From: Microthyrium microscopicum
Lineage: Eukaryota
DNA: 64,000 nt
Reading direction: 5' to 3'
NCBI GenBank assembly: GCA_010405405.1
Contig: MU004245.1
Span: 313,256 to 377,255, forward strand
Shown here: positions 19,181 through 32,663 of the stretch, piece after piece
How the letters are laid out: each line of letters begins with the position of its first letter
How positions within the stretch are numbered: position 1 is the first letter of the stretch
Notes under the pieces: generated by a model
What the model saw: the letters and a program-made list of their open reading frames with translations, nothing else
The model's database searches: none
What the model was told of the DNA's origin: nothing
Position numbers and translations under genes: made by a program

Positions 19181-19824
19181 GCCTAGACGCTGCGTTCTGT
19201 TACTGAGTGCCTTGTTTGCCATAAAGAGCGTTCGAATTGGGAATATCTATTAGATATGATGGGAATTAAAGCACCTTATGGTTAGCAGCGCTGGTGGTAG
19301 CCATTAGAATTCATGGGAGTACGCTATTTATTTTGCTACGCCGTTGGCACTGAATCGTGTACCATGGAAAGTAATTGCACAAAGACATGTTGCGTAGATC
19401 AACGTAGTACCTGGTTAAGGTCAGCATGGTCGATACTGGCGGGTAGATGCTTTGCCCGTTGGTAGCAATATTGGACTTTTCCACTCAATGAGTGTCATAC
19501 TGTCGTACAATACGCAATCTTAGAGCGTTCCAAGGATCTCTTGTTGGTACAAGCTGTGTTCAATTGATCGAATAAACTTTCTTCAGAAATGAGCTTCTGA
19601 GGCTCAGACGCTTCCAAGGTTTTCCCATTTAGTTATCAAAGGTCCGGTAGATGCGCCTTTTCTACGCCCCATACCCTTTGCCCCATAGTGGTACCTCAAG
19701 AGTCAGATTCTCAACCATTGACACCGGTTTCGACGACAGTTGACTGCTTCAAATAAGCTACACCTCTCGAACCCGTTCTTCGTCTTCACCAGCGGGGCTT
19801 AACGATACGCCAATCCCCAATACT

Positions 19825-21456
19825 ATGTCCGCAGCCAATTACGAGACCCTTGACAGAGAGATTTCTGCGAGATCTGAGGACACAGATGACTGTCTGGCTC
19901 CCTTTGCAAGTGTTATAAAGCGACTGAACGTTGATGGAATTGCCTCTTATTCTCTTGCTATTCGGAAAGGACACATGAGCGTATCAGAATGCAATGCCCT
20001 GTCGTGCACCGTTGAGGAAAACAACCCGATGGTTGGATCCTTCAACATTGTGTATTGCATACAATTCAACGACGGTCTGAAATGGGTCATCAAAATCCCT
20101 TCAAACGCACACCCGGGGTCCTGGGATACCGAATCAGCAAACGCGCTACGCTCCGAAGCTTTGTTGATGCAGTTCCTGAAAAGGGAAACAAACATTCCCA
20201 TTCCTAGCGTCTTTGCCTATGACATGTCGCTCGACAATCCGACAAATTGTCCTCATATCATCATGGAGTTCGCACATGGCAGGTCTTTACGCGACATGTG
20301 GTTTGACAAAAGATTAAGTGATGAAAAGCGCAAACAAAAGAGGGCTCGAGCTTTGATGCAATATGCCTCTCGCATAATCCAACTCAACAAGTTCACATTC
20401 TCAAAAGGTGGCTCGATAGAATTTGACATTGATGGTCGCATGATCGGAATACAACCGTTGCGAAAAGTCGACCAAGACTCACTACTTGCTGATTTCGAGG
20501 CCGGGGGAGACATAACTACAAAATACATCACAGGCGGGCCTTACGAGGATCAGTTCTCAATGTTCATCGAAGCTTTCGATCGAAGAGATGCACATCAGAG
20601 GAATCAAGGTGACTTCAAGAAAGCATCTAGAAAACTATTGCGTCTGTTCTTGAGCTGGATTCCTCTTGACGTTTATGATGGTATTGAAACAACCTCTATC
20701 GACACCCATCCGTTTGTGTTATCACATAGTGATCCTGATAGCCAGAATATACTTGTGGATCAGGACGGCAACATAACTTCGATTATCGATTGGGACGGCG
20801 CTTGTAGTTCTCCAAGGACTCCTGGAAATATCGGGTTTCCCAGCTGGCTTACTCGGGACTGGGATCCTCTTTGCTACGACTGGAAGTCGGATTGGGGTGA
20901 TACTCCCTCAGAGGAGATTTCTGATGAAGACTCTCCTCAGCAACTTGCTGCACACCGCGAGGAATACGCAGGATACATGCATGCCATATCGCAGGCAATG
21001 GGGGCTACGAAATCGACAGAAAGAGCTACCAAGAATTCCATGATGATCGATAATCTATTGATAGCTGCAGAGCTTCCCATGAATGAAACAGAAATTGTTT
21101 CTACGATATTTGAAGAGGTAAGATCCCGACCTATGCAAGACTGTTTCACGATTGAACTTCGTTCTTGTCAAAGTAATCGGTGGTTTCCACGGCACTCGTT
21201 GGCATTCATCGTATGCTTGTCATTCGCGAAGACACATAATGTGATTGATAGTCATTTCTGTGGATTATGCTAAAAATTGTAGATTAGGCAGCATCTTTTG
21301 ACTCTAGGACTGGATACTCCTACCGAAGAGGGTGAAGTCGCAATAGATATGGAGGATTTCTGTTTTTTTGACATTGAAAGGCTGCTAGAAGAGGACGATT
21401 GGAGTGAGAGGTTGATTAATAGGCTCAAGGTTGGATTTCAGCATTTTTGCTCGTAG
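19825..21456 (+). CDS. APH/choline-kinase-like phosphotransferase family protein
   Basis: GSFNIVY..F.DG.KWVIKIP, SEALLMQFLK..T.IPIP.V, HIIMEF, FVLSHSDPDSQNILVD, IIDWD; intron 21118-21282 gives terminal exon ending TAG at 21456. Confidence 0.85.
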
Positions 21457-23493: not shown

Positions 23494-25227
23494 ATGGCTA
23501 CTCTAGCATCGCAGCTTGCAAAGTCTCTCCCTAAACCTAAATACACCGGCGATGAAGAAGAACTACCCACCCACACCAAAGCACGCGGTCCACGGATTGT
23601 CGACGCTTCCTCTCTCGACACTCAAGTCGTGCTAAAACGTCGCGGTCCTCCTCCTTACGGGCAGCGCGCTGGTTGGCGGCCGCGATCTGCCGAAGACTAT
23701 GGTGATGGGGGCGCATTTCCCGAAGTCGCAGTGGCCCAGTATCCTTTGGACATGGGCCGCAAGTCAACATCAGCCTCGAATGCGCTTGCCCTACAAGTTG
23801 ATGCGGAGGGAAAAGTCAAATACGATGCCATCGCGCGAAGAGGACATGGGGAAGATCGAATCATTCATTCAAGTTTCAAAGACTTGATACCATTGAGACA
23901 ACGGGCGGATGTAGGCGAGATATCTCTCGAGAGACCATCCGAGGAAGAGGTACAGGCGACCAAGGAGCGGACGCAAGCTGCTCTGGCAGCGCTTGTTTCT
24001 GGCGCTGTTACAGCACAAAAACCAAAGAACGTTAAGGGTAATAGCAGGGATGCACCAACTTATGTGCGGTATACTCCAAGTACTGGACAAATGGGTGATC
24101 ATTCCGAAAAGAAAGAGCGCATTATCAAGATTGTGCAACGGCAACAAGATCCTATGGAACCACCAAAATTCAAACACAAGAAAATCCCTGGCCGAGCCCC
24201 ATCACCTCCACCTCCAATAATGCATAGTCCTCCTAGAAAACTTACAGCGGAAGATCAAGAAGCATGGAAAATCCCACCTCCTGTTTCAAATTGGAAGAAT
24301 CCCAAGGGCTATACCATTGCTCTGGACAAGCGACTTGCTGCTGATGGTCGAGGCCTGCAAGATGTTACAATCAACGATAAATTTAGTCAATTCGCGGAAG
24401 CTCTATATACCGCAGATCGTCATGCTCGCGAAGAAGTCAAACAACGCGCCATGATGCAACACAAACTCGCCGAAAAAGAGAAGTCCATGCGAGAAGAAAA
24501 CCTGCGCCAATTAGCTCAAAAAGCCCGAGATGAACGTGCTGGTGGCTCAATACGTCCATCGCGAGCACGTAGTGGAAGTCGTGGCCGAAGTCGAAGCCGA
24601 AGTGAAGAAAGCTATGCTACAGATAGTGACGAGGAAGCCGAAAAGGAACGCGAGCGAGATCGCCGGGAACGGAAACAGGAGCGCGAGCGCGAGCTACGCA
24701 TGTCGAAAATGGGTGCAGAGAAGCGTATCAAGGCACTGGCTCGGGATCAGGGTCGCGACATATCAGAAAAGGTTGCCCTTGGACTAGCAAAGCCGACTGC
24801 CTCGGCAGAGAGCATGTACGATTCTCGATTATTCAACCAAAGCTCCGGCTTTGCTGCAGGCTTCAACGAGGACCAAGCATACGATAAGCCACTATTTGCA
24901 GCACAAGAGGCTCTCAGCTCTATATATCGCTCTAACGTAGCCGAAGAAGATCCCGAAGATGGAGATGCAGCATACGAGCGGATAACACGCGCCAAACGAT
25001 TTGATGGGTTCAAGGATGCGGCACATGCAGAAAAACGAGATGGTCCCGTGCAGTTTGAAAGAGATCGGGTAATCAAAGGAAGTGTACCCGGAAAGGACGG
25101 TGATGATCCATTCAATATAGATCAGATGATCAGCGAAGTCACAGCCAATCCATCGACCAAGCGTTATGGATTGGAAGAGGGCGGACGAGAGTCAAAACGA
25201 GCAAGGGTGGACGAGGACTCGGATTGA
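23494..25227 (+). CDS. PRP45: Pre-mRNA splicing factor Prp45/SKIP (SNW domain)
   Basis: DGGAFPEV..AQYPLDMG, DPMEPPKFKHKK, IPPPVSNWKNPKGYTIALDKRLAADGRGL, RDISEKVALG, YDSRLFNQ. Confidence 0.97.
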   Translation: MATLASQLAKSLPKPKYTGDEEELPTHTKARGPRIVDASSLDTQVVLKRRGPPPYGQRAGWRPRSAEDYGDGGAFPEVAVAQYPLDMGRKSTSASNALALQVDAEGKVKYDAIARRGHGEDRIIHSSFKDLIPLRQRADVGEISLERPSEEEVQATKERTQAALAALVSGAVTAQKPKNVKGNSRDAPTYVRYTPSTGQMGDHSEKKERIIKIVQRQQDPMEPPKFKHKKIPGRAPSPPPPIMHSPPRKLTAEDQEAWKIPPPVSNWKNPKGYTIALDKRLAADGRGLQDVTINDKFSQFAEALYTADRHAREEVKQRAMMQHKLAEKEKSMREENLRQLAQKARDERAGGSIRPSRARSGSRGRSRSRSEESYATDSDEEAEKERERDRRERKQERERELRMSKMGAEKRIKALARDQGRDISEKVALGLAKPTASAESMYDSRLFNQSSGFAAGFNEDQAYDKPLFAAQEALSSIYRSNVAEEDPEDGDAAYERITRAKRFDGFKDAAHAEKRDGPVQFERDRVIKGSVPGKDGDDPFNIDQMISEVTANPSTKRYGLEEGGRESKRARVDEDSD

Positions 25228-25314: not shown

Positions 25315-28300
25315 TCACCATTTCGGACCCCATTGAGAATCATCGATCTTTTTGAGTAATTTGACCGTCTCTGATTTTCCTTCACTCTCTGCGCACATTG
25401 ACGCTGTGCATCCATCCTTATCCAGTAAACTCAAATCTGCCTTACCTTCGACGAGAAGAATCTTAGCTGTAGAGTCGTTTCCCGTTTTAGCTGCCCAAAT
25501 CAATGCAGTACGCCCGTGCTTATCTATTGAGTCTACCTTTGCTCTCCCTTTTTCGATCAGCAGTAGTGTCATCATGTCCGAGCCCTGACAGACCGCTGCC
25601 ATCAACGGCGTCACCCCATTTTCATCACTCAAATTTGCGTCTGCCTCATAAACTCCTATCAAATATGCGACTACAGTTGAATTGCCGGCTAACACAGCTA
25701 AAAATAACGGTGTGTGGCCCACTGAATTGACCACATTCACATCCACCGCACGAGTGCTGAGAATATCTTCAATTATGCGAAATGAGATACAGTCTCCAGA
25801 CTGGTCAGAGGGATATACCGCATACAAGTCAGCCTGTAGCAGAGCAGCTTCCAATGCAGCTTTGTTGCTTATATGGTAGAGCAACTGCACAACGCTATGA
25901 GACTGCGTGCCAGCTGCACATCCAATTGCTGAACGGCCATTATGTACCACATTAATGTCGACACCTTTATCGATCAAAAGTTCAACCACAGAGCCTGACT
26001 TTCCCGATGCAGCTGCCATGATGGGTGTGTAACCTTGAAACATCCCGTTCGCATCAACACCTGTGGCCAACAGTCGCTTGACGGTCCCTTCCAGCCCGAA
26101 ATAAGCAGCGGATGTTAGGAAGAAAAAGACTTCGGCATTATCTGCCAGGTTGCAAGCACCCGCAGCTACCAGGAGCACACAAAGATCATCGTGCTTAGCA
26201 TTCATGGTGTAAGATAGCACGTTGTAACCACCCTCACACTTGATGGTAACGTCAGCATCCTTACGGAGAACTAGCTTGAAAACAGCCCGATGTCCTCCTA
26301 GAGCAGCATACATCAGGGGCGAACGTCCTCGGTTGTCCTGAGTATTCACCTCAGCTCCCGCCTCCAGCAGAATTTGGACAATGTCCTGATTTCCTTCACC
26401 GGCGTATTCGGACAAAATCGTTTGGCCATTCGGTATCTTGGCCTCCAGATTAGGCATCACTGGTCTTGATCGCAGCAGTTCTTTGAAGGTGTCTTTGCAT
26501 CCTGAGATTTTCGCCCAATGCAATATTGTCCAATTCTTTTCGTTTAGGCCTCTTAATAATGGGTGCCTCCGGCGTACCTTTTCCTTTGATTCTTTTGAAG
26601 AAATCACCCAAGGCACCATTGATAGCTTATGAGGGCACCAGTGAGAGTAGAGGAACTTGGAAGTGCTATAGGATGTCGTCACGACTGGTGCTGTACCGCC
26701 AATACCTTGTTTGGGCTGGTTCAGCCTCTGAAGAGATTCGATTGTGTTGCTTTGCTTAGACTCGCTCGGGGCTTGATCTTCACGACCAAAACTGACATCT
26801 GCGCCGTGATACAGGAGCAGCTTAACCATAGTGGCAGAGCCTAGCGCGGCAGCGATCATCGGCAACGTACGCTTTTCAGGTATGTAGTCAGGCCAATTTG
26901 TGTCGATGTTAACTTCGTCCATGAATGAGCTAACGTCTGTCGTATGAATATAAGCTCCTGCCGTAATTAATTGCTCGGCAATCGCCACATTATTTTTGCA
27001 GACGGCAAGGCATAGAGCACTCATCTCTTTGTACTTGGTGTCGAGACTGATTCTTTTTGTCTCAAGTAATGTCCTAACCACCGCTTCGTGTTGTTCACGG
27101 ATAGCCCATAGAAGAGGCGGCCATGTACAATGACCACCCACCGTTGTAAGATCTTGCTCACCTTTCTGTATCAACATATGCAGTACTGAGTCAAGCCCTT
27201 TTGACGCTGCAAATAGCGTAGCCGTCTTCTTCGGGACATAGGGGTAAAACCGACCAATATTTGTAAGTTGCGGGTTGCAAAGCTGATACGCATCGGAAAC
27301 CGTGTCTTTATGACGATGAGGTTCGCAATTCACAAAATGTGAGATCCAGTAGCATATTGCGTAATCGAAAAAAGCCGACATTTGGGCCCCTTTTGTGAGC
27401 TCGTGGTTCTCCGAGTCGCACTCCCATTCTGACCCAGCAGAGTCGTATTCCAGCTCCCAACTCGCTGCAATATTGTCCTTACCGAATTCCTGATCATCAA
27501 CCAACGGCATCTCGGCATAGACTAAGAGAAGAGTTTTCATGCATGCTCTCAGTATTGTAACGTCAGCTTCTCTTTGGGGAAACGTTGATTTCCAGGTAGA
27601 TACTTGAGTATTGCCAGCGTTGACGTCTAATGTTGCATTATCCTGTGTATCGGATGTCAAGAATTCCTTAGCAGTTTGATGAAGCAGATATACATGCCCA
27701 TCAACAATGTTGATGAACAAGCCGCACGTATTTCGAACCTTCGCTCTAAATGTTTCCGGCTCGTCCATTTCAACATCGAATGAAAAGTTAAACTTCTTGG
27801 CAGTTCCCTGTTTGACGTGAATCTGATTCTTGGCTATTTTCAAGGCGAAGTCTAGTTCCTCTGATGCCAAAGGTCTGTCCGCTGCAAGTATAAGATTCAT
27901 CATAATTCTCGCTTGAAAATGATCCGTCACTCTGGCCAAGATCTTCTCATATGCGTCATCAACCGATTTTGGTAAAACTGCAATAAGTGATGCCAAGCTG
28001 GAGTAAGACGACTCGAGTGAGAGGATCATCTCTTCTATCATCAAGTAAGCCCAGAGATAGGTCTTGTTTTCCATGGCGATCATGTTTTCAACGAGGTATT
28101 TTTCTGCTTCAGGTGAGATTTTCAACGAATCGCGAACATCAATCATTCGTTGTTGGATCATGATGTTTATCTCTTTGTTGATCTGAGTAGATAACAAATC
28201 ACCGTCCAGGTGAATCGAGTTCAATATCGATCCAAACTTGAACTGAATTTTCTGATATGGCCGCCCAGTGAGGATGAATTTGAGCGTTCCTTTCAAGTCC

Positions 28301-30224
28301 GTTCGTGCTGAATAGAAGTCCCTCACAAGTTCTATCAATCTGTCTCGTTGCAGTTCCTGATTTTGGCACTCGTCTAGACCATCCATGACAACTATGATAA
28401 GCCCAGCAAGCGGATCGCCAGCGACTTCTAACAGCGATTCCCATAGAGCCGATAGGCTGTAGTTCTTCCAATATAACTCGCATAATCGCGTGACCAGGGG
28501 AATTAATTTGTGCTTCTGCAGGCATATCTGATGCAATAGGGACATAAGGGCATTGGCTGCGCTCCCTCTAAAACGGTCGTCCTTGAAAAAGTAATAGCAC
28601 ACTGTGGGTGGAGCCACAAATGACTGCGCACTGGAGGATGATGCGTAGAGAAGTTTCTCGTCGATCAATGCTCTCATCAGAGTTGATTTGCCACAACCAG
28701 GGCCTGCAGTCACCCAAAGAACATCGGAAGTAGTGCCTTGACGCCAGTCGACGAACTTTTCGTGACTTGTCAGCCAGTGACATGTTCCTGGCGTGCGTTG
28801 AGGACTGAGATTCTTCAGTGACTGGTGGTCGAATGCGAGATCTCCCATACATTCTTGTTCTTCTTCACTCAGAGCGGTGGCTGAAGAAGACTCAACCATC
28901 TCTTTCAAGCGGCCAGCAACAAGCACAAAGCTAGGATCAGTACGTCCCCGAAACTTGTTCATCATGGCATGACGGACATCCAGTGGGAACTTTGGATGGC
29001 CGTCAATGCAGGCAGATTGTTCATCCACAAGCTAAGAACACTATTTAGCACTGTAACTTGAGGTAGCATGCACCCCAACCTACTAGCATAAACCTATCGG
29101 GAAACAGGCCCCAAAAAACTGCTTTCGAGATAGTGGTTACACGAGTCTCATAAAAGCAAATGATCTGGATTGGTCGTTTCCTCCGCACTACAAGTCTCGC
29201 AAATTCCTCAAGCAAACTCTGAAGTCGGCTTGAATACTCTGTCAAATCAGCTAAGAGCAAATTCGATGCTTCCGTGCCAATGAAGACACTGGAAAGCATA
29301 TTCTTCCATATTGCAGGTCTGGCCGCTGCGGAGCCTCGTAAGGGTGTTCCCAAGAAGATAGCACCAATGGTTTGATCAAGCAAGTCCCTTGACTTGGAGG
29401 CCTGATCCGTTTCATGGGAGGCTTGCACAAGCGCCTACATTCAGTCGTTAGTTATGTACCTTCCAAACGATGCACAAGATGAACGGCATGCCACCATCAG
29501 CTTTTTTGGGTCTCAGTGACTACGCTGTGCCCTCGGCCAGCTTTTTCCCGTGGAACCACGTAAAAGAGCTGCTGGATATCGAGCACGATAGGGATTAGAA
29601 GATATGCTTTGGTGAGGTGCGGTGGCAGACCTCATGCTCGGTCGAGATTTGCAAGTGAGTCCATCGATCTTATGCCTTCGTGGTTTGAAGAGCCGAAAGA
29701 GAGGAGCCAGGCATGTATTGATAGAGAAACATATGTCGAGAGTATAAATAGTAATATTGCGCCGAAATCTTGACAAAACACCCGTAATTGCAGTTTCGTG
29801 CTGGTATGTCAACTTACATCTGCTACAACAATGCCACCAAAGCACGACCCGATGAACAGTATCTCTCTTCCTCTAAGCTCCTCAAAGTTGTCTTTGAGGT
29901 GAGACAAGAAAGTGCTGGCCAATCCAGAGAGCGTAACTTGCTGTGCGTTGTCAGAATAATTGGCGTTATAGTCAAACGTCCATATTCTGGCGGTTGGAAT
30001 AGCCAGTGGAAGCATATCAAAATCTTTAAGCCAGTTTACTGCACGGCCTCTAGGTTCAGTCTCGAGACCGTGAACTGCGATAATACTGCCTTGCTGTTAG
30101 TAAATGTTGACTTGCTAATGTAGAATACGAACTCCATGGTAGTATTGTTCTCCACACCGGGCCGGGGAAATACAGGACGAAGACCAAGCGGCCTTGAGGC
30201 AGGCAACGGGGACCCATCGGTCAT
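25315..30224 (-). CDS. Fungal NLR-like protein: SesB/PGAP1-like alpha/beta-hydrolase + NACHT NTPase + ankyrin repeats
   Basis: Introns 30086-30132, 29435-29817, 29032-29083 join DIIAVHGL..NWLKD.DMLP..ARIWTFDYN..FIGSCFGGIVV..IFLGTPLRGS..CFYET to Walker A GPGCGKS, Walker B MDGLDEC, YLW, HQTAKEFL and many ankyrin motifs (GRSPLMYAA, GHTPLFLAV, GVTPLMAAV, GRTALIWAA). Confidence 0.9.
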
Positions 30225-30817
30225 TATGATGTCTCCGGGACTGTCTCGACCTTGCGGAGCTGACTAGGAAAACGACGGAAGCAAGTAAACAAGATCAAGG
30301 CGACTGATGGCACAGTAACCAATGGAATCACAAAGTGTCTGAAGATCTTCGAGATTCTGAAGGCGTCTTCATCAATTTGAGAGCCACTAGAATGTATTTG
30401 CTGCTTTCAAAGCATGTCAGCGACCAAATGAATATGGGATGACTGAACAAACTCAAAACTGGCAGAAGGTGGCATTTGTTCTCAACTCCTTGTTGAACGA
30501 CTATTTGATTGCCAGCAATAGATGCTTCTTGTGCTTTGATTAATTGCGATATCTTTGCTGATGGTCCTAATCAAGTACCAAAGTGTCTGGTCGATTTTCG
30601 ACCTTCAACAAACTCCGCGATATTTGCTAGACCTCAGTGTTGCGGATGACATGTTTGCGATCCTGTCATTGTTCACTTCCACTTCAACTGCTTTCGTCCA
30701 CTTTTCGATGCTCTACCCGTCTACCTTAAATATTGACTTCGTGGTAGCAACAGAACTGGCTAAAGTAAAACTGAGGTTGTCTCAAGTTATTCTATTGAAA
30801 AAAATACCACACTAACA

Positions 30818-31890
30818 ATGTTGTTGATCAGCAAGGATACCGAGTTAAACAAGGACCTTACCTTGGTTGCTTCAGGATCTTCTTTTGCTCTTCGACGTTC
30901 CGAGACAACAAGTTCCAAATGCCTCCCAGGTCAGGCTCGAGTGCAACTAGACAATGACAATCTCGCCGACTACCTCCGCGACGCTTTTTGTATCCCGAGT
31001 CTAGACAAAATTGGATCATACCTACGGCTTGTCAGTTAAACAGGAGTTTGCGACTTAGCGCTAAAAACAGCATCACTAACCGAAGGAAGGCATTTACCCC
31101 CGACTCGAGGCATATTTCCGCTATCCACCAGCAAGCAACTCGGGGTCGAGAGATCATTGTCGCTGAAAACCCATATCTACATCTCGTCTGGTATTACGAC
31201 CGCGTTTTCGTCAAACCAATACCACCTTACCTGCTCTCGTCCGCTTTCTGGGAATACATGAGACAGACAGACAAAGACCTATGGCAATCAGCGGCTGGAT
31301 TCATGCGGACTTATGCACATCTCATCAAGTACGAAGTTGACTTTCGGAAAGCGCAAAGCAAAAAGCTTGGGTTGATACCAGCTGACGATGGCAAAGACAC
31401 CATCACCTACGAGAGGTTTTCCAGATTCATAGCCCCTTTTGCGGACCTTCCAGATGATCAAGTGGCACAGCGGTATCATTACGGAGAAATGCGTCTCACC
31501 CGGCTAAATTGGTTTGCGCGGATCTTTCTGGGCAAGCTGACTTATCATCATATTCATGCTCAGTGGCATGATTATTTTGGTCGATTTCTCGCGCCATTCT
31601 TGACAGTATTTGCAATGTGCTCGATGATTTTGGCAGCAACGCAAGTCATCTTGTCCGTGGAAAGGGCACCAGAAATTACTGGAGGCTGGCAAAAATTCGC
31701 GACGGTGGCACTTTGGTTTTCGGTGCTAGTCATCGTTCTTGTCATGGTGCTTTTCGCGTTCATCGTGGCTTTGGCAGCGTTCATGTTCATCCATGATCAG
31801 CTTTTCGCCTGGAAGGTTAGACGCCGGAATCAAGGCCGGCAGCACATGGGAGTTGGAATAGGGGAAACCATGAAATCGGGCGTCGTCTGA
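30818..31890 (+). CDS. DUF6601-like fungal protein with two C-terminal TM helices
   Basis: Intron 31031-31089; HQQ..RGREI..E.P.LHLVW..DRVFVKPIP.YLLS..FW, GFMRTYA.LI..E.DF..A, RY.YGE.RLTRLN motifs; hydrophobic C-terminus. Confidence 0.8.

Positions 31891-32052: not shown

Positions 32053-32663
<611 letters not shown>

Follow-up and report, generated by a model that had tools for sequence, protein, structure and literature searches.

A cysteine-elbow SesB-like NLR gene and a DUF6601 gene recur as a head-to-head pair in filamentous ascomycetes

Does a fungal NLR gene that lies head-to-head with the gene of a predicted membrane protein belong together with this neighbour, and if so, through which of its domains? 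This question is raised by a locus of Microthyrium microscopicum, located in the 64,000-nucleotide stretch of contig MU004245.1 analysed here (the window). There, an NLR gene and a DUF6601 gene were confirmed to be arranged head-to-head between PRP45 and a glutaredoxin gene, as judged by gene models and by Pfam on the flanks (Table 1). The initial annotation had described a hydrolase-NACHT-ankyrin NLR and a DUF6601-like protein whose C-terminal part has two hydrophobic helices, on which gene models, Pfam, Atlas and Kyte-Doolittle analysis now agree. It had also placed both genes in an island with a spacer of ~590 bp, which fits the distance between the two start codons; a composition scan of the window shows no step at the island boundaries. 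The database proteins P0001 and P0128 are exact translations of the gene models from the window coordinates.

Table 1 Positions of the features at the NLR/DUF6601 locus, numbered within the window
Feature	Position	Strand	Details
PRP45/SNW (SKIP/SNW) flank	23494..25227	+	convergent with NLR, 87 bp stop to stop
NLR gene	25315..30224	-	4 exons (30224-30133, 30085-29818, 29434-29084, 29031-25315); 1475 aa; ATG at 30224
NLR domain order			SesB-like hydrolase (about residues 30-285), NACHT (NPHP3_N type), ankyrin repeats
NLR second intron	29435..29817	-	383 nt
Cys112 codon, NLR nucleophile elbow	29842..29844	-	G-S-C-F-G-G read in sequence
Spacer between start codons	30225..30817	.	593 bp; covered by minus-strand RNA contig
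Two antisense introns	30812..31080	-	30812-30861 and 31022-31080; minus-strand RNA contig
DUF6601 gene	30818..31890	+	exons 30818-31030 and 31090-31890; intron 31031-31089; 337 aa; ATG at 30818
Predicted membrane hairpin of DUF6601	31597..31785	+	Kyte-Doolittle scan, AF2 model, conservation
Glutaredoxin flank	32053..32468	-	103 aa, two introns; convergent with DUF6601

In the last exon of the NLR gene, Pfam detected a NACHT of the NPHP3_N type (E = 1.7e-32; the Pfam NACHT family itself reached 8.5e-4, below the cut-off), whose Walker A and B motifs are intact when read in the sequence, together with ankyrin repeats (Ank_2, six stretches, E = 1.2e-66). With a Walker A/B-bearing NACHT and a C-terminal repeat sensor, the protein is a fungal NLR of the STAND type. 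Its N-terminus consists of a proline-rich start of 30 residues (6 Pro in 35; G/N/Q 14%), followed by the hydrolase. A Pfam scan of two hydrolase exons gave no match; residues 8-288 group with DUF676/PGAP1/SERAC1 hydrolases in an Atlas feature search (top score 0.97; range 0.93-0.97), and the domain is SesB-like by this feature match. Within the elbow G-S-C-F-G-G, Cys112 occupies the position at which alpha/beta-hydrolases normally have Ser, and the G-x-S-x-G nucleophile of lipases and esterases is thus missing. In a weak profile match (E = 0.07), the elbow Cys aligns with the Ser of G-H-S-F-G-G in the acyl-CoA hydrolase MpaH'. Conservation of C112 is at least 90% (alignment A4). Of the 150 closest relatives of a Cys-type query, 127 have a readable elbow, and 112 of these carry Cys; the replacement is therefore a clade-wide change. 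The position of His258 within a motif that recurs makes it the likely triad His, and the N-terminal domain is predicted to have hydrolase or acyltransferase activity.

The neighbouring protein matches PF20246 (E = 3.3e-63; 214 bits against a curated cut-off of 27) and, with Pfam, PF20246 alone: no gasdermin, no HeLo-type match, and no protease domain, although databases call it a 'subtilisin-like serine protease'. Its soluble N-terminal domain is followed by two hydrophobic helices near the C-terminus and by a basic tail; the C-terminal S-G-V-V is conserved. The hydrophobic stretches (about residues 241-259 and 277-303 by Kyte-Doolittle) are helices in the AF2 model; the first is only moderately hydrophobic and contains Gln256, which is 98% conserved, and the second is long. 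Across 66 rows at 25-60% identity, H102, W125, D155, R199, R206, R209 and N211 of the soluble domain are invariant. Neither Pfam nor an Atlas structure search, which above TM 0.3 returned only DUF6601 itself, revealed a catalytic motif of a known family. For a model of exon 2 (pLDDT 71), Foldseek found nothing at E<=0.001, and other matches were generic helical hairpins only (Z <=8.9). The soluble domain of a relative (L043; pLDDT 92, pTM 0.89) likewise had no Foldseek match; against 48,161 chains, its highest Z was 3.4 (rmsd 4.2, 103 aligned), and PDB sequences contained no DUF6601 match at E<=10. These blank searches imply neither a new fold nor the exclusion of gasdermin or HeLo/MLKL-like families. 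Among 3137 longer candidates, a single protein emerged in the search for fusions, and it carried DUF6601 only, which is weak evidence against fusion. Pattern scans of limited reach retrieved no DUF6601 relatives from viral contigs and, in one scan, none from prokaryotic genomes.

The two genes had also been called divergently transcribed, which holds for their orientation but is not borne out by the RNA. In run X5, which comprises assembled contigs only and is RNA-like by an automated guess (no run with the locus is recorded as RNA), the only RNA over DUF6601 is antisense-spliced. The contig in question (~32492 to 29783) extends on the minus strand from the glutaredoxin gene into NLR exon 2 and carries five introns with minus-strand (CT..AC) borders, two inside DUF6601; the first of these two spans its start codon and the second nearly overlaps its sense intron, which is not spliced in the X5 contigs. 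The NLR intron 30086-30132 is spliced in X5, and the lack of cover over 28808-29779 is uninformative. The short low-depth pieces of run X6 (share 0.16) were left out.

Pairing across fungi was counted by a profile search for SesB-like hydrolases at metagenome DUF6601 loci, the sample being the best 80 of 215 DUF6601 matches. In this sample, a SesB-like hydrolase lies head-to-head with DUF6601 at 22 of the 30 non-redundant fungal loci that have 1.5 kb or more upstream and on the same strand upstream at none of the 30, so that the enrichment beside NLR-type genes expected by the initial annotation is indeed found. Downstream, again among the best 80 of 215 matches, the hydrolase is in tandem at 4 of 28 representatives and convergent at 0/28. 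A tandem hydrolase lies downstream in L037, L038, L057, L058 and L066. Pairing amounts to 11/15 once DUF6601 is collapsed at 55% identity, and the hydrolase start is a median of 797 nt away from the DUF6601 match in 27 head-to-head entries, including the window. Across fungi, the head-to-head arrangement exceeds chance expectation by far; the background rate comes from own-genome searches, whose figures are lower bounds. In five named genomes, the two genes have neighbouring accessions or locus tags: Pseudogymnoascus verrucosus, Pseudogymnoascus sp. 24MN13, Bathelium mastoideum (two assemblies), Dendryphion nanum and Melanomma pulvis-pyrius.

The 32 linked hydrolases have Cys (22), Ser (4) or Asp (1) at the elbow, with five unreadable (Cys at 22/27 readable). 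What follows the hydrolase varies among NACHT-ankyrin, NB-ARC-TPR, an S8 protease (L027) and DUF6590 (L024, L035), the latter two without a Pfam-detected nucleotide-binding domain. Neither the NACHT nor the sensor is the constant partner of DUF6601; this role belongs to the hydrolase domain. Of the proposed NLR-DUF6601 two-gene module, the conserved pairing thus stands, and the link to NLRs in general gives way to a tie with a SesB-like, mostly Cys-type hydrolase. Among the 24 loci whose two flanks each reach 1.5 kb or more, six have no hydrolase (L007, L020, L028, L059, L079, L084), and two of these (L007, L020) belong to the window protein's own DUF6601 clade. Two Coleophoma Cys-hydrolase NLRs are not beside DUF6601, as judged from one DUF6601 accession per species. 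DUF6601 is also found in generally NLR/HET-rich stretches.

Distances of the NLR hydrolase and of DUF6601 correlate (Mantel rho 0.525, 0/5000 permutations, 24 pairs), which speaks against the independent phylogenies that would have refuted the initial annotation; no species tree separates co-inheritance from descent here, and related loci are not independent. The two trees broadly match: the 12 members of a hydrolase clade with 100/99 support all fall into one 19-row DUF6601 clade (SH-aLRT 99, quick tree), in which both NACHT and NB-ARC partners are present. The hydrolase tree left out L015, L022, L031, L032, L052, L058 and L078 (short hydrolase matches), and the quick DUF6601 tree has long branches for L039 (frameshifted) and for a divergent DUF6601 paralogue of M. 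microscopicum, C1. This second copy resides among housekeeping-type genes, by eye from their translations, on a contig without NACHT, NB-ARC or SesB match. Seven SesB-like genes, a lower bound, were found in the same genome. Only the Cys-type one adjoins DUF6601; the others are on other contigs and have Ser or Gly at the elbow (5/5 readable). A mostly Cys-type SesB-like hydrolase clade is hence co-inherited with DUF6601 in filamentous ascomycetes, usually head-to-head, while the rear modules change. Taken at the level of sequence, the recurrence of a Cys-hydrolase NLR beside DUF6601 in many filamentous fungi suggests a so far undescribed module of two parts for defence or cell death.

SesB-like NLRs, in which an N-terminal SesB-like hydrolase is joined to NACHT or NB-ARC and ankyrin, TPR, WD or HEAT repeats, are among the commonest fungal types, and the hydrolase, a predicted lipase, is treated as a direct effector (Dyrka 2014, PMC4986451; Bonometti 2025, PMC12258605). 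SesB-like domains make up about a fifth of annotated ascomycete NLR N-termini (PMC4986451). The NLR studied here has the same hydrolase-NACHT-ankyrin build, but in the available text of both papers the published proteins are 'all-in-one', with no partner gene. This text mentions neither a Cys-nucleophile clade nor a DUF6601 link, and we found in it no report of a substrate or downstream step of SesB-like domains. On DUF6601/PF20246, only an annotation table was found (Curvularia, in the accessible part of PMC10512319); NCU00831/2/3 gave no literature match. No published description of the NLR/DUF6601 pair was found in a literature of which supplements and subscription papers were partly covered.

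As for mechanism, nwd2/het-S had been put forward as an analogy. Like the nwd2/het-S and het-eN/sesA/sesB clusters, the last of which combines SesB with a membrane-targeting protein, the present locus has an NLR beside a candidate effector gene; unlike here, NLRs of the nwd2 type have no effector domain and share a G/N/Q-rich motif with the effector, as far as described in the available text of Daskalov 2012 (PMC3321046). The analogy fails because an enzyme domain sits where the amyloid motif would be. An amyloid-signalling pair is accordingly disfavoured: the NLR has its own hydrolase after the Pro-rich start, and the initial annotation had recognised no amyloid motif. The C-terminal tail of DUF6601 is basic and hydrophobic by a composition check.

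The best model for how the pair may work is provided by the gasdermin-protease clusters. As in clusters of the het-Q1/het-Q2 type, an enzyme domain on varied sensor or NLR scaffolds would be matched at clade level to a separate, membrane-acting gene, with ~80% clustered; for gasdermin and protease genes, 80% lie within 10 kb (Clave 2022, PMC8851545, available text). The enzyme here is a Cys alpha/beta-hydrolase instead of an S8 or CHAT protease, with no protease domain detected by Pfam where NLR exons were scanned and an S8 behind the hydrolase only in the one related locus above, and DUF6601, unlike gasdermins, has two predicted transmembrane helices. A soluble domain joined to two transmembrane helices, coupled to an enzyme-made signal, is also described for type II Thoeris ThsB/ThsA and other bacterial two-transmembrane effectors (10.1101/2024.01.03.573942, available text); with a different enzyme and kingdom, the likeness is one of layout.

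We infer that the pair is a cell-death or immunity module. Against this stand the 6/24 partnerless loci, the C1 paralogue, the two Coleophoma NLRs, the 5/27 readable elbows without Cys and the antisense-spliced RNA. A Cys thioester intermediate would favour acyl transfer. In the reading we prefer, and to which we give an even chance, the activated Cys-hydrolase would switch on DUF6601, either transferring an acyl group or giving rise to a lipid-type signal, similar to protease-gasdermin pairs. By analogy to other NLRs, a ligand bound to the ankyrin repeats would oligomerise the NACHT and turn on the hydrolase. The latter may act directly on its cognate DUF6601, e.g. by acyl transfer, or a lipid-derived product may be bound by the Arg/His-rich soluble domain of DUF6601. 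The two-helix part would then oligomerise and permeabilise or depolarise the membrane, leading to a defence or cell-death response. More tentatively, and on balance doubtfully, this might be a third NLR-executioner route besides amyloid templating and proteolysis, with Cys-SesB as acyltransferase or lipid-messenger maker and DUF6601 as receptor and new two-helix pore or channel class, its soluble domain unlike characterised effectors.

The main rival, unlikely but to be reckoned with, reverses the roles: the Cys-hydrolase would be a toxic effector damaging membrane lipids, and DUF6601, anchored in the membrane, would serve as its inhibitor, immunity protein or tether, holding it inactive or positioning it at the proper membrane. 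Direct membrane modification has been proposed for SesB-like domains (available text of PMC4986451), and at none of the eight loci inspected is DUF6601 broken while the hydrolase is intact. The two loci where DUF6601 is broken (L039, L041) have a broken NLR as well, and DUF6601 survives unbroken in L026, where the hydrolase next to it is disrupted, and alone at the 6/24 loci. The type of DUF6601 tail tracks the elbow, as a docking peptide might (S-x-V-V-like in 8/8 with an S-C elbow, 0/16 with others), though as one clade-level event. However, two broken cases are few and are accounted for by co-decay. In addition, the remaining SesB-like genes in the M. microscopicum genome do without a DUF6601 neighbour, and NLR autoinhibition already restrains the N-terminal effector domain, here the hydrolase.

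Rather improbable is a two-step pathway, in which DUF6601, with helices serving only as an anchor, would be a membrane-bound enzyme making the substrate or processing the product of the Cys-hydrolase. Its invariant His102, Asp155, Arg199, Arg206, Arg209 and Asn211 could be catalytic, the moderate hydrophobicity of the first helix and the survival of the divergent paralogue without an NLR would suit it, but no known family's catalytic motif emerged, and the long second helix and the conserved Gln seem to exceed the needs of a plain anchor. Still less probable is hitch-hiking, i.e. an old head-to-head pair on a shared promoter that spread with NLR-rich accessory DNA and without functional link. 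The NLR/HET-rich stretches, the relatedness of the loci and a sample of the best 80 of 215 matches speak for it; yet linkage persists at median identities of 42% (DUF6601) and 32% (hydrolase), survives the change of orientation in the tandem loci and occurs in unrelated flanking contexts, with no match to PRP45, glutaredoxin or LMBR1 at the 80 loci (best 80 of 215). Least probable is the guardee or decoy role raised by the initial annotation, with NLR repeats watching DUF6601 for antagonist tampering: linkage is tight, and NLR-type and HET genes without SesB-like hydrolase lie near DUF6601 (L079, L059, L030; also the Curvularia table), but NACHT/NB-ARC and sensor (ankyrin, TPR, S8, DUF6590) are swapped or absent among pairs while the hydrolase stays, which therefore disfavours it.

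The pairing is a first functional context for DUF6601, and a partner gene tracking one catalytically distinct SesB clade offers an enzyme together with a candidate target. Were DUF6601 the executioner, it would be a new fungal cell-death effector family with a new coupling chemistry; were it the antidote, the two genes would form a fungal toxin-immunity pair with an NLR as its base.

Also against the preferred reading, head-to-head geometry alone holds a 5' domain beside its neighbour while 3' modules recombine. Finally, NLR intron 2, single copy, not a repeat and without match to an Rfam RNA family, is ~300 nt longer than that of relatives: among 16 related loci, one of them unmeasurable, the elbow-to-next-motif distance is 147-236 nt in 15/16, compared to 494 nt here.

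Exon models built from window coordinates on contig C16 of the fungal assembly (37.1 Mb) exactly reproduced the Microthyrium microscopicum database proteins P0001 and P0128, to which the DUF6601 and NLR products are identical. The initial annotation had placed a hydrolase-NACHT-ankyrin gene head-to-head with DUF6601 between PRP45 and glutaredoxin, about 590 bp apart. Exon models and domain matches confirmed this arrangement, with 593 bp between the two start codons, and PRP45 and glutaredoxin are each convergent with the adjoining module gene. Pfam identified an NPHP3_N-type NACHT and ankyrin repeats in the NLR, and an Atlas feature search grouped its N-terminal domain with DUF676/PGAP1/SERAC1 hydrolases. 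Work on fungal NLRs calls this class SesB-like; the window NLR fits it by architecture but fails its Ser-lipase signature. The DUF6601 protein ends in two hydrophobic helices, predicted at the position where two TM helices had been proposed, and a basic tail.

Coordinates and identifiers of the module and related features (window positions unless a contig or locus is named)
Feature	Location	Strand	Remarks
NLR gene	30224-25315	minus	four exons, 1475 aa
DUF6601 gene	30818-31890	plus	337 aa
NLR intron 2	29435-29817	minus	383 nt, exceeding that of relatives by ~300 nt; single copy
RNA contig end in intron 2	29783-29817	minus	~34 nt inside the intron
GT..AG intron in NLR ankyrin region	26880-26954	plus	seen in X5
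DUF6601 sense intron	31031-31089	plus	59 nt
Antisense intron	31022-31080	minus	59 nt
APH-like phosphotransferase ORF	19744-21273		PF01636, E 5.8e-8; ~2 kb before PRP45
Second NACHT gene	G000:C16:390276-390779		outside window, ~45 kb beyond DUF6601 gene, same contig
DUF6601 paralogue (L001, L004)	G000:C1:4289845-4290564		intronless, divergent, among housekeeping-type genes
Cys-hydrolase, then S8 subtilase	L027:7080-9416		same strand, head-to-head with DUF6601
Cys-hydrolase, then DUF6590	L024:1444-4360		weak TPR/ankyrin matches as well
Cys-hydrolase, then DUF6590	L035:6694-9579		
DUF6601 + related NLR, P. verrucosus	VE01_01234/01233		adjacent tags
DUF6601 + related NLR, Pseudogymnoascus 24MN13	VE04_08685/08686		adjacent tags
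DUF6601 + related NLR, Bathelium	KAI9664044/5, KAI9695038/9		adjacent accessions
DUF6601 + related NLR, Dendryphion	KAH7117682/3		adjacent accessions
DUF6601 + related NLR, Melanomma	KAF2787255/6		adjacent accessions

The pairing is real and widespread. Scanning metagenomes with an alignment of DUF6601 yielded 215 relatives; the best 80 of the 215 loci, a sample biased toward the window's DUF6601 subfamily, formed 50 clusters at 85% identity, and for one representative per cluster a hydrolase profile was compared with six-frame ORFs. Among representatives with at least 1.5 kb upstream, a hydrolase lay head-to-head in 22/30 and on the same strand in 0/30; downstream, with at least 1.5 kb available, it was in tandem in 4/28 and convergent in 0/28. 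With both flanks present, a hydrolase occurred at any position in 18/24, and coarser collapse gave 21/28 (70% identity), 13/20 (60%) and 11/15 (55%). The chance per locus would be about 0.004 even assuming 100 SesB loci per 37 Mb, the loci not being independent. Adjacent pairs are also found in named genomes (see table), which we take to represent two fungal classes. Four further pairs come from contigs of equal length, which is no more than a hint of linkage. The only paper found to use the term DUF6601 (PMC10512319) places it in Curvularia with an ankyrin fragment on one side and an NB-ARC-TPR gene on the other, without comment in the accessible part. At locus L057, Cys-hydrolase genes flank DUF6601 on both sides, one head-to-head and one in tandem.

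The nucleophile elbow of the NLR hydrolase reads G-S-C-F-G-G, and a clade profile weakly matched its Cys to the Ser in an acyl-CoA hydrolase of known structure (E 0.07). Among the 150 closest relatives of one Cys-type query, 127 elbows were readable (112 Cys, 14 Ser, 1 Gly), so that the Cys is not a one-off substitution; as the query was itself Cys-type, the tally is evidence for a Cys clade, not for its share of all SesB domains. The 59 relatives scanned for modules carried NACHT, NB-ARC, kinase or others with ankyrin, TPR, WD or HEAT repeats, or nothing recognised. Acyl transfer would be favoured by a Cys nucleophile; a literature search for support turned up one unrelated paper. The window's own genome holds at least seven SesB-like loci, with Cys on C16, Ser in four, Gly in one and one unreadable; the six others all lie on contigs without DUF6601.

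Anatomy, Cys elbow, linkage and module swapping were observed. Beyond these, the reading we prefer, to which we give even chances, is that NLR activation would switch on the hydrolase, which would then target DUF6601 either directly or by way of a product, and that the DUF6601 membrane hairpin would be the executing part. An executioner is preferred by analogy: gasdermin-protease clusters (PMC8851545) and bacterial effectors with two helices (10.1101/2024.01.03.573942), as described in the accessible parts of these sources, serve as the models. The module is by membership neither an amyloid pair nor a protease-gasdermin pair, but may work like the latter.

DUF6601 might instead be an antidote or tether for the hydrolase, a minor though real possibility. 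Among eight loci inspected for breaks, DUF6601 was broken at two, both also with a broken NLR, and at one it was intact with the hydrolase disrupted. An S-x-V-V-like C-terminal tail occurs in 8/8 DUF6601 proteins paired with a Ser-Cys elbow and in 0/16 others; this match follows clade boundaries and is taken as a single event. Rather improbably, DUF6601 could be an enzyme partner of the hydrolase. Polar and basic residues make up most of the invariant positions of DUF6601, as would suit a ligand pocket or an active site. The soluble domain of relative L043, modelled confidently (pLDDT 92), is predicted to be mainly helical with short strands. In eight relatives (L031, L033, L037, L044, L049, L061, L083, L085) a terminal Cys follows a basic stretch and is a possible lipidation site. 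Neurospora crassa NCU00832 (P0104) is a DUF6601 gene, for which we found no literature mention, and offers a genetic handle in a model fungus.

The DUF6601 link is to the hydrolase. Behind linked hydrolases lie NACHT-ankyrin, NB-ARC-TPR, S8 protease or DUF6590, and the elbows of 32 linked hydrolases comprise 22 Cys, 4 Ser, 1 Asp and 5 unreadable. A hydrolase clade of 12 members, in which NACHT as well as NB-ARC receptors occur, falls within a single DUF6601 clade, and the pairwise distances of one gene correlate with those of the other (rho 0.525, 0/5000 permutations, 24 pairs). This shows long-lasting joint inheritance, the correlation by itself, without a species tree, not amounting to co-adaptation. 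Mere hitch-hiking is very unlikely, and DUF6601 as guardee of the NLR is the least probable reading. S8 neighbours as in L027 may be the reason why databases label DUF6601 proteins 'subtilisin-like serine protease'; Pfam detected no NBD behind the Cys-hydrolases of L024 and L035, where DUF6590 could serve as a further sensor or adaptor.

Several results weigh against the module. The profile search found no hydrolase at 6/24 well-flanked loci, of which two encode close relatives of the window's DUF6601, and two Coleophoma Cys-hydrolase NLRs are non-adjacent to the single DUF6601 accession seen per species. The genome's second DUF6601, on C1, is divergent (25-27% identity) and no NLR was found near it; the family as a whole is therefore not NLR-bound, and this paralogue may represent a separate, NLR-independent subfamily.

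The pairing extends the known two-gene NLR/effector theme. Neither DUF6601 as a partner nor the Cys-type SesB clade is mentioned in the accessible parts of PMC4986451, PMC12258605, 10.1101/2022.03.16.484565, PMC3321046, PMC12881547 and PMC8851545. No description of the pair was found in the literature covered, mostly outside subscription papers, and it is apparently undescribed.

Both genes are covered by spliced antisense RNA, which likewise weighs against the module. One contig of X5, the only RNA-like run used, starts in glutaredoxin, crosses DUF6601 and reaches NLR exon 2; all its introns are on the minus strand, and one of them takes out the start codon of DUF6601. A contig spanning genes does not prove a single transcript. 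Another RNA contig overruns the PRP45 stop by about 500 nt and so enters the 3' end of the NLR. The minus-strand contig end in intron 2, read as is, would encode a 122-aa NLR fragment stopping just after the Cys elbow, and is either an unspliced pre-mRNA end or early termination, which contigs cannot separate. X5 showed no splicing of DUF6601 in the sense direction; the position of its intron is shared with those relatives in which the open frame stops at the matching point. Of the two nearly overlapping introns here, X5 showed splicing for the antisense one alone, and within window:31022-31089 a branch-site-like hexamer of one strand reads as the donor of the other.
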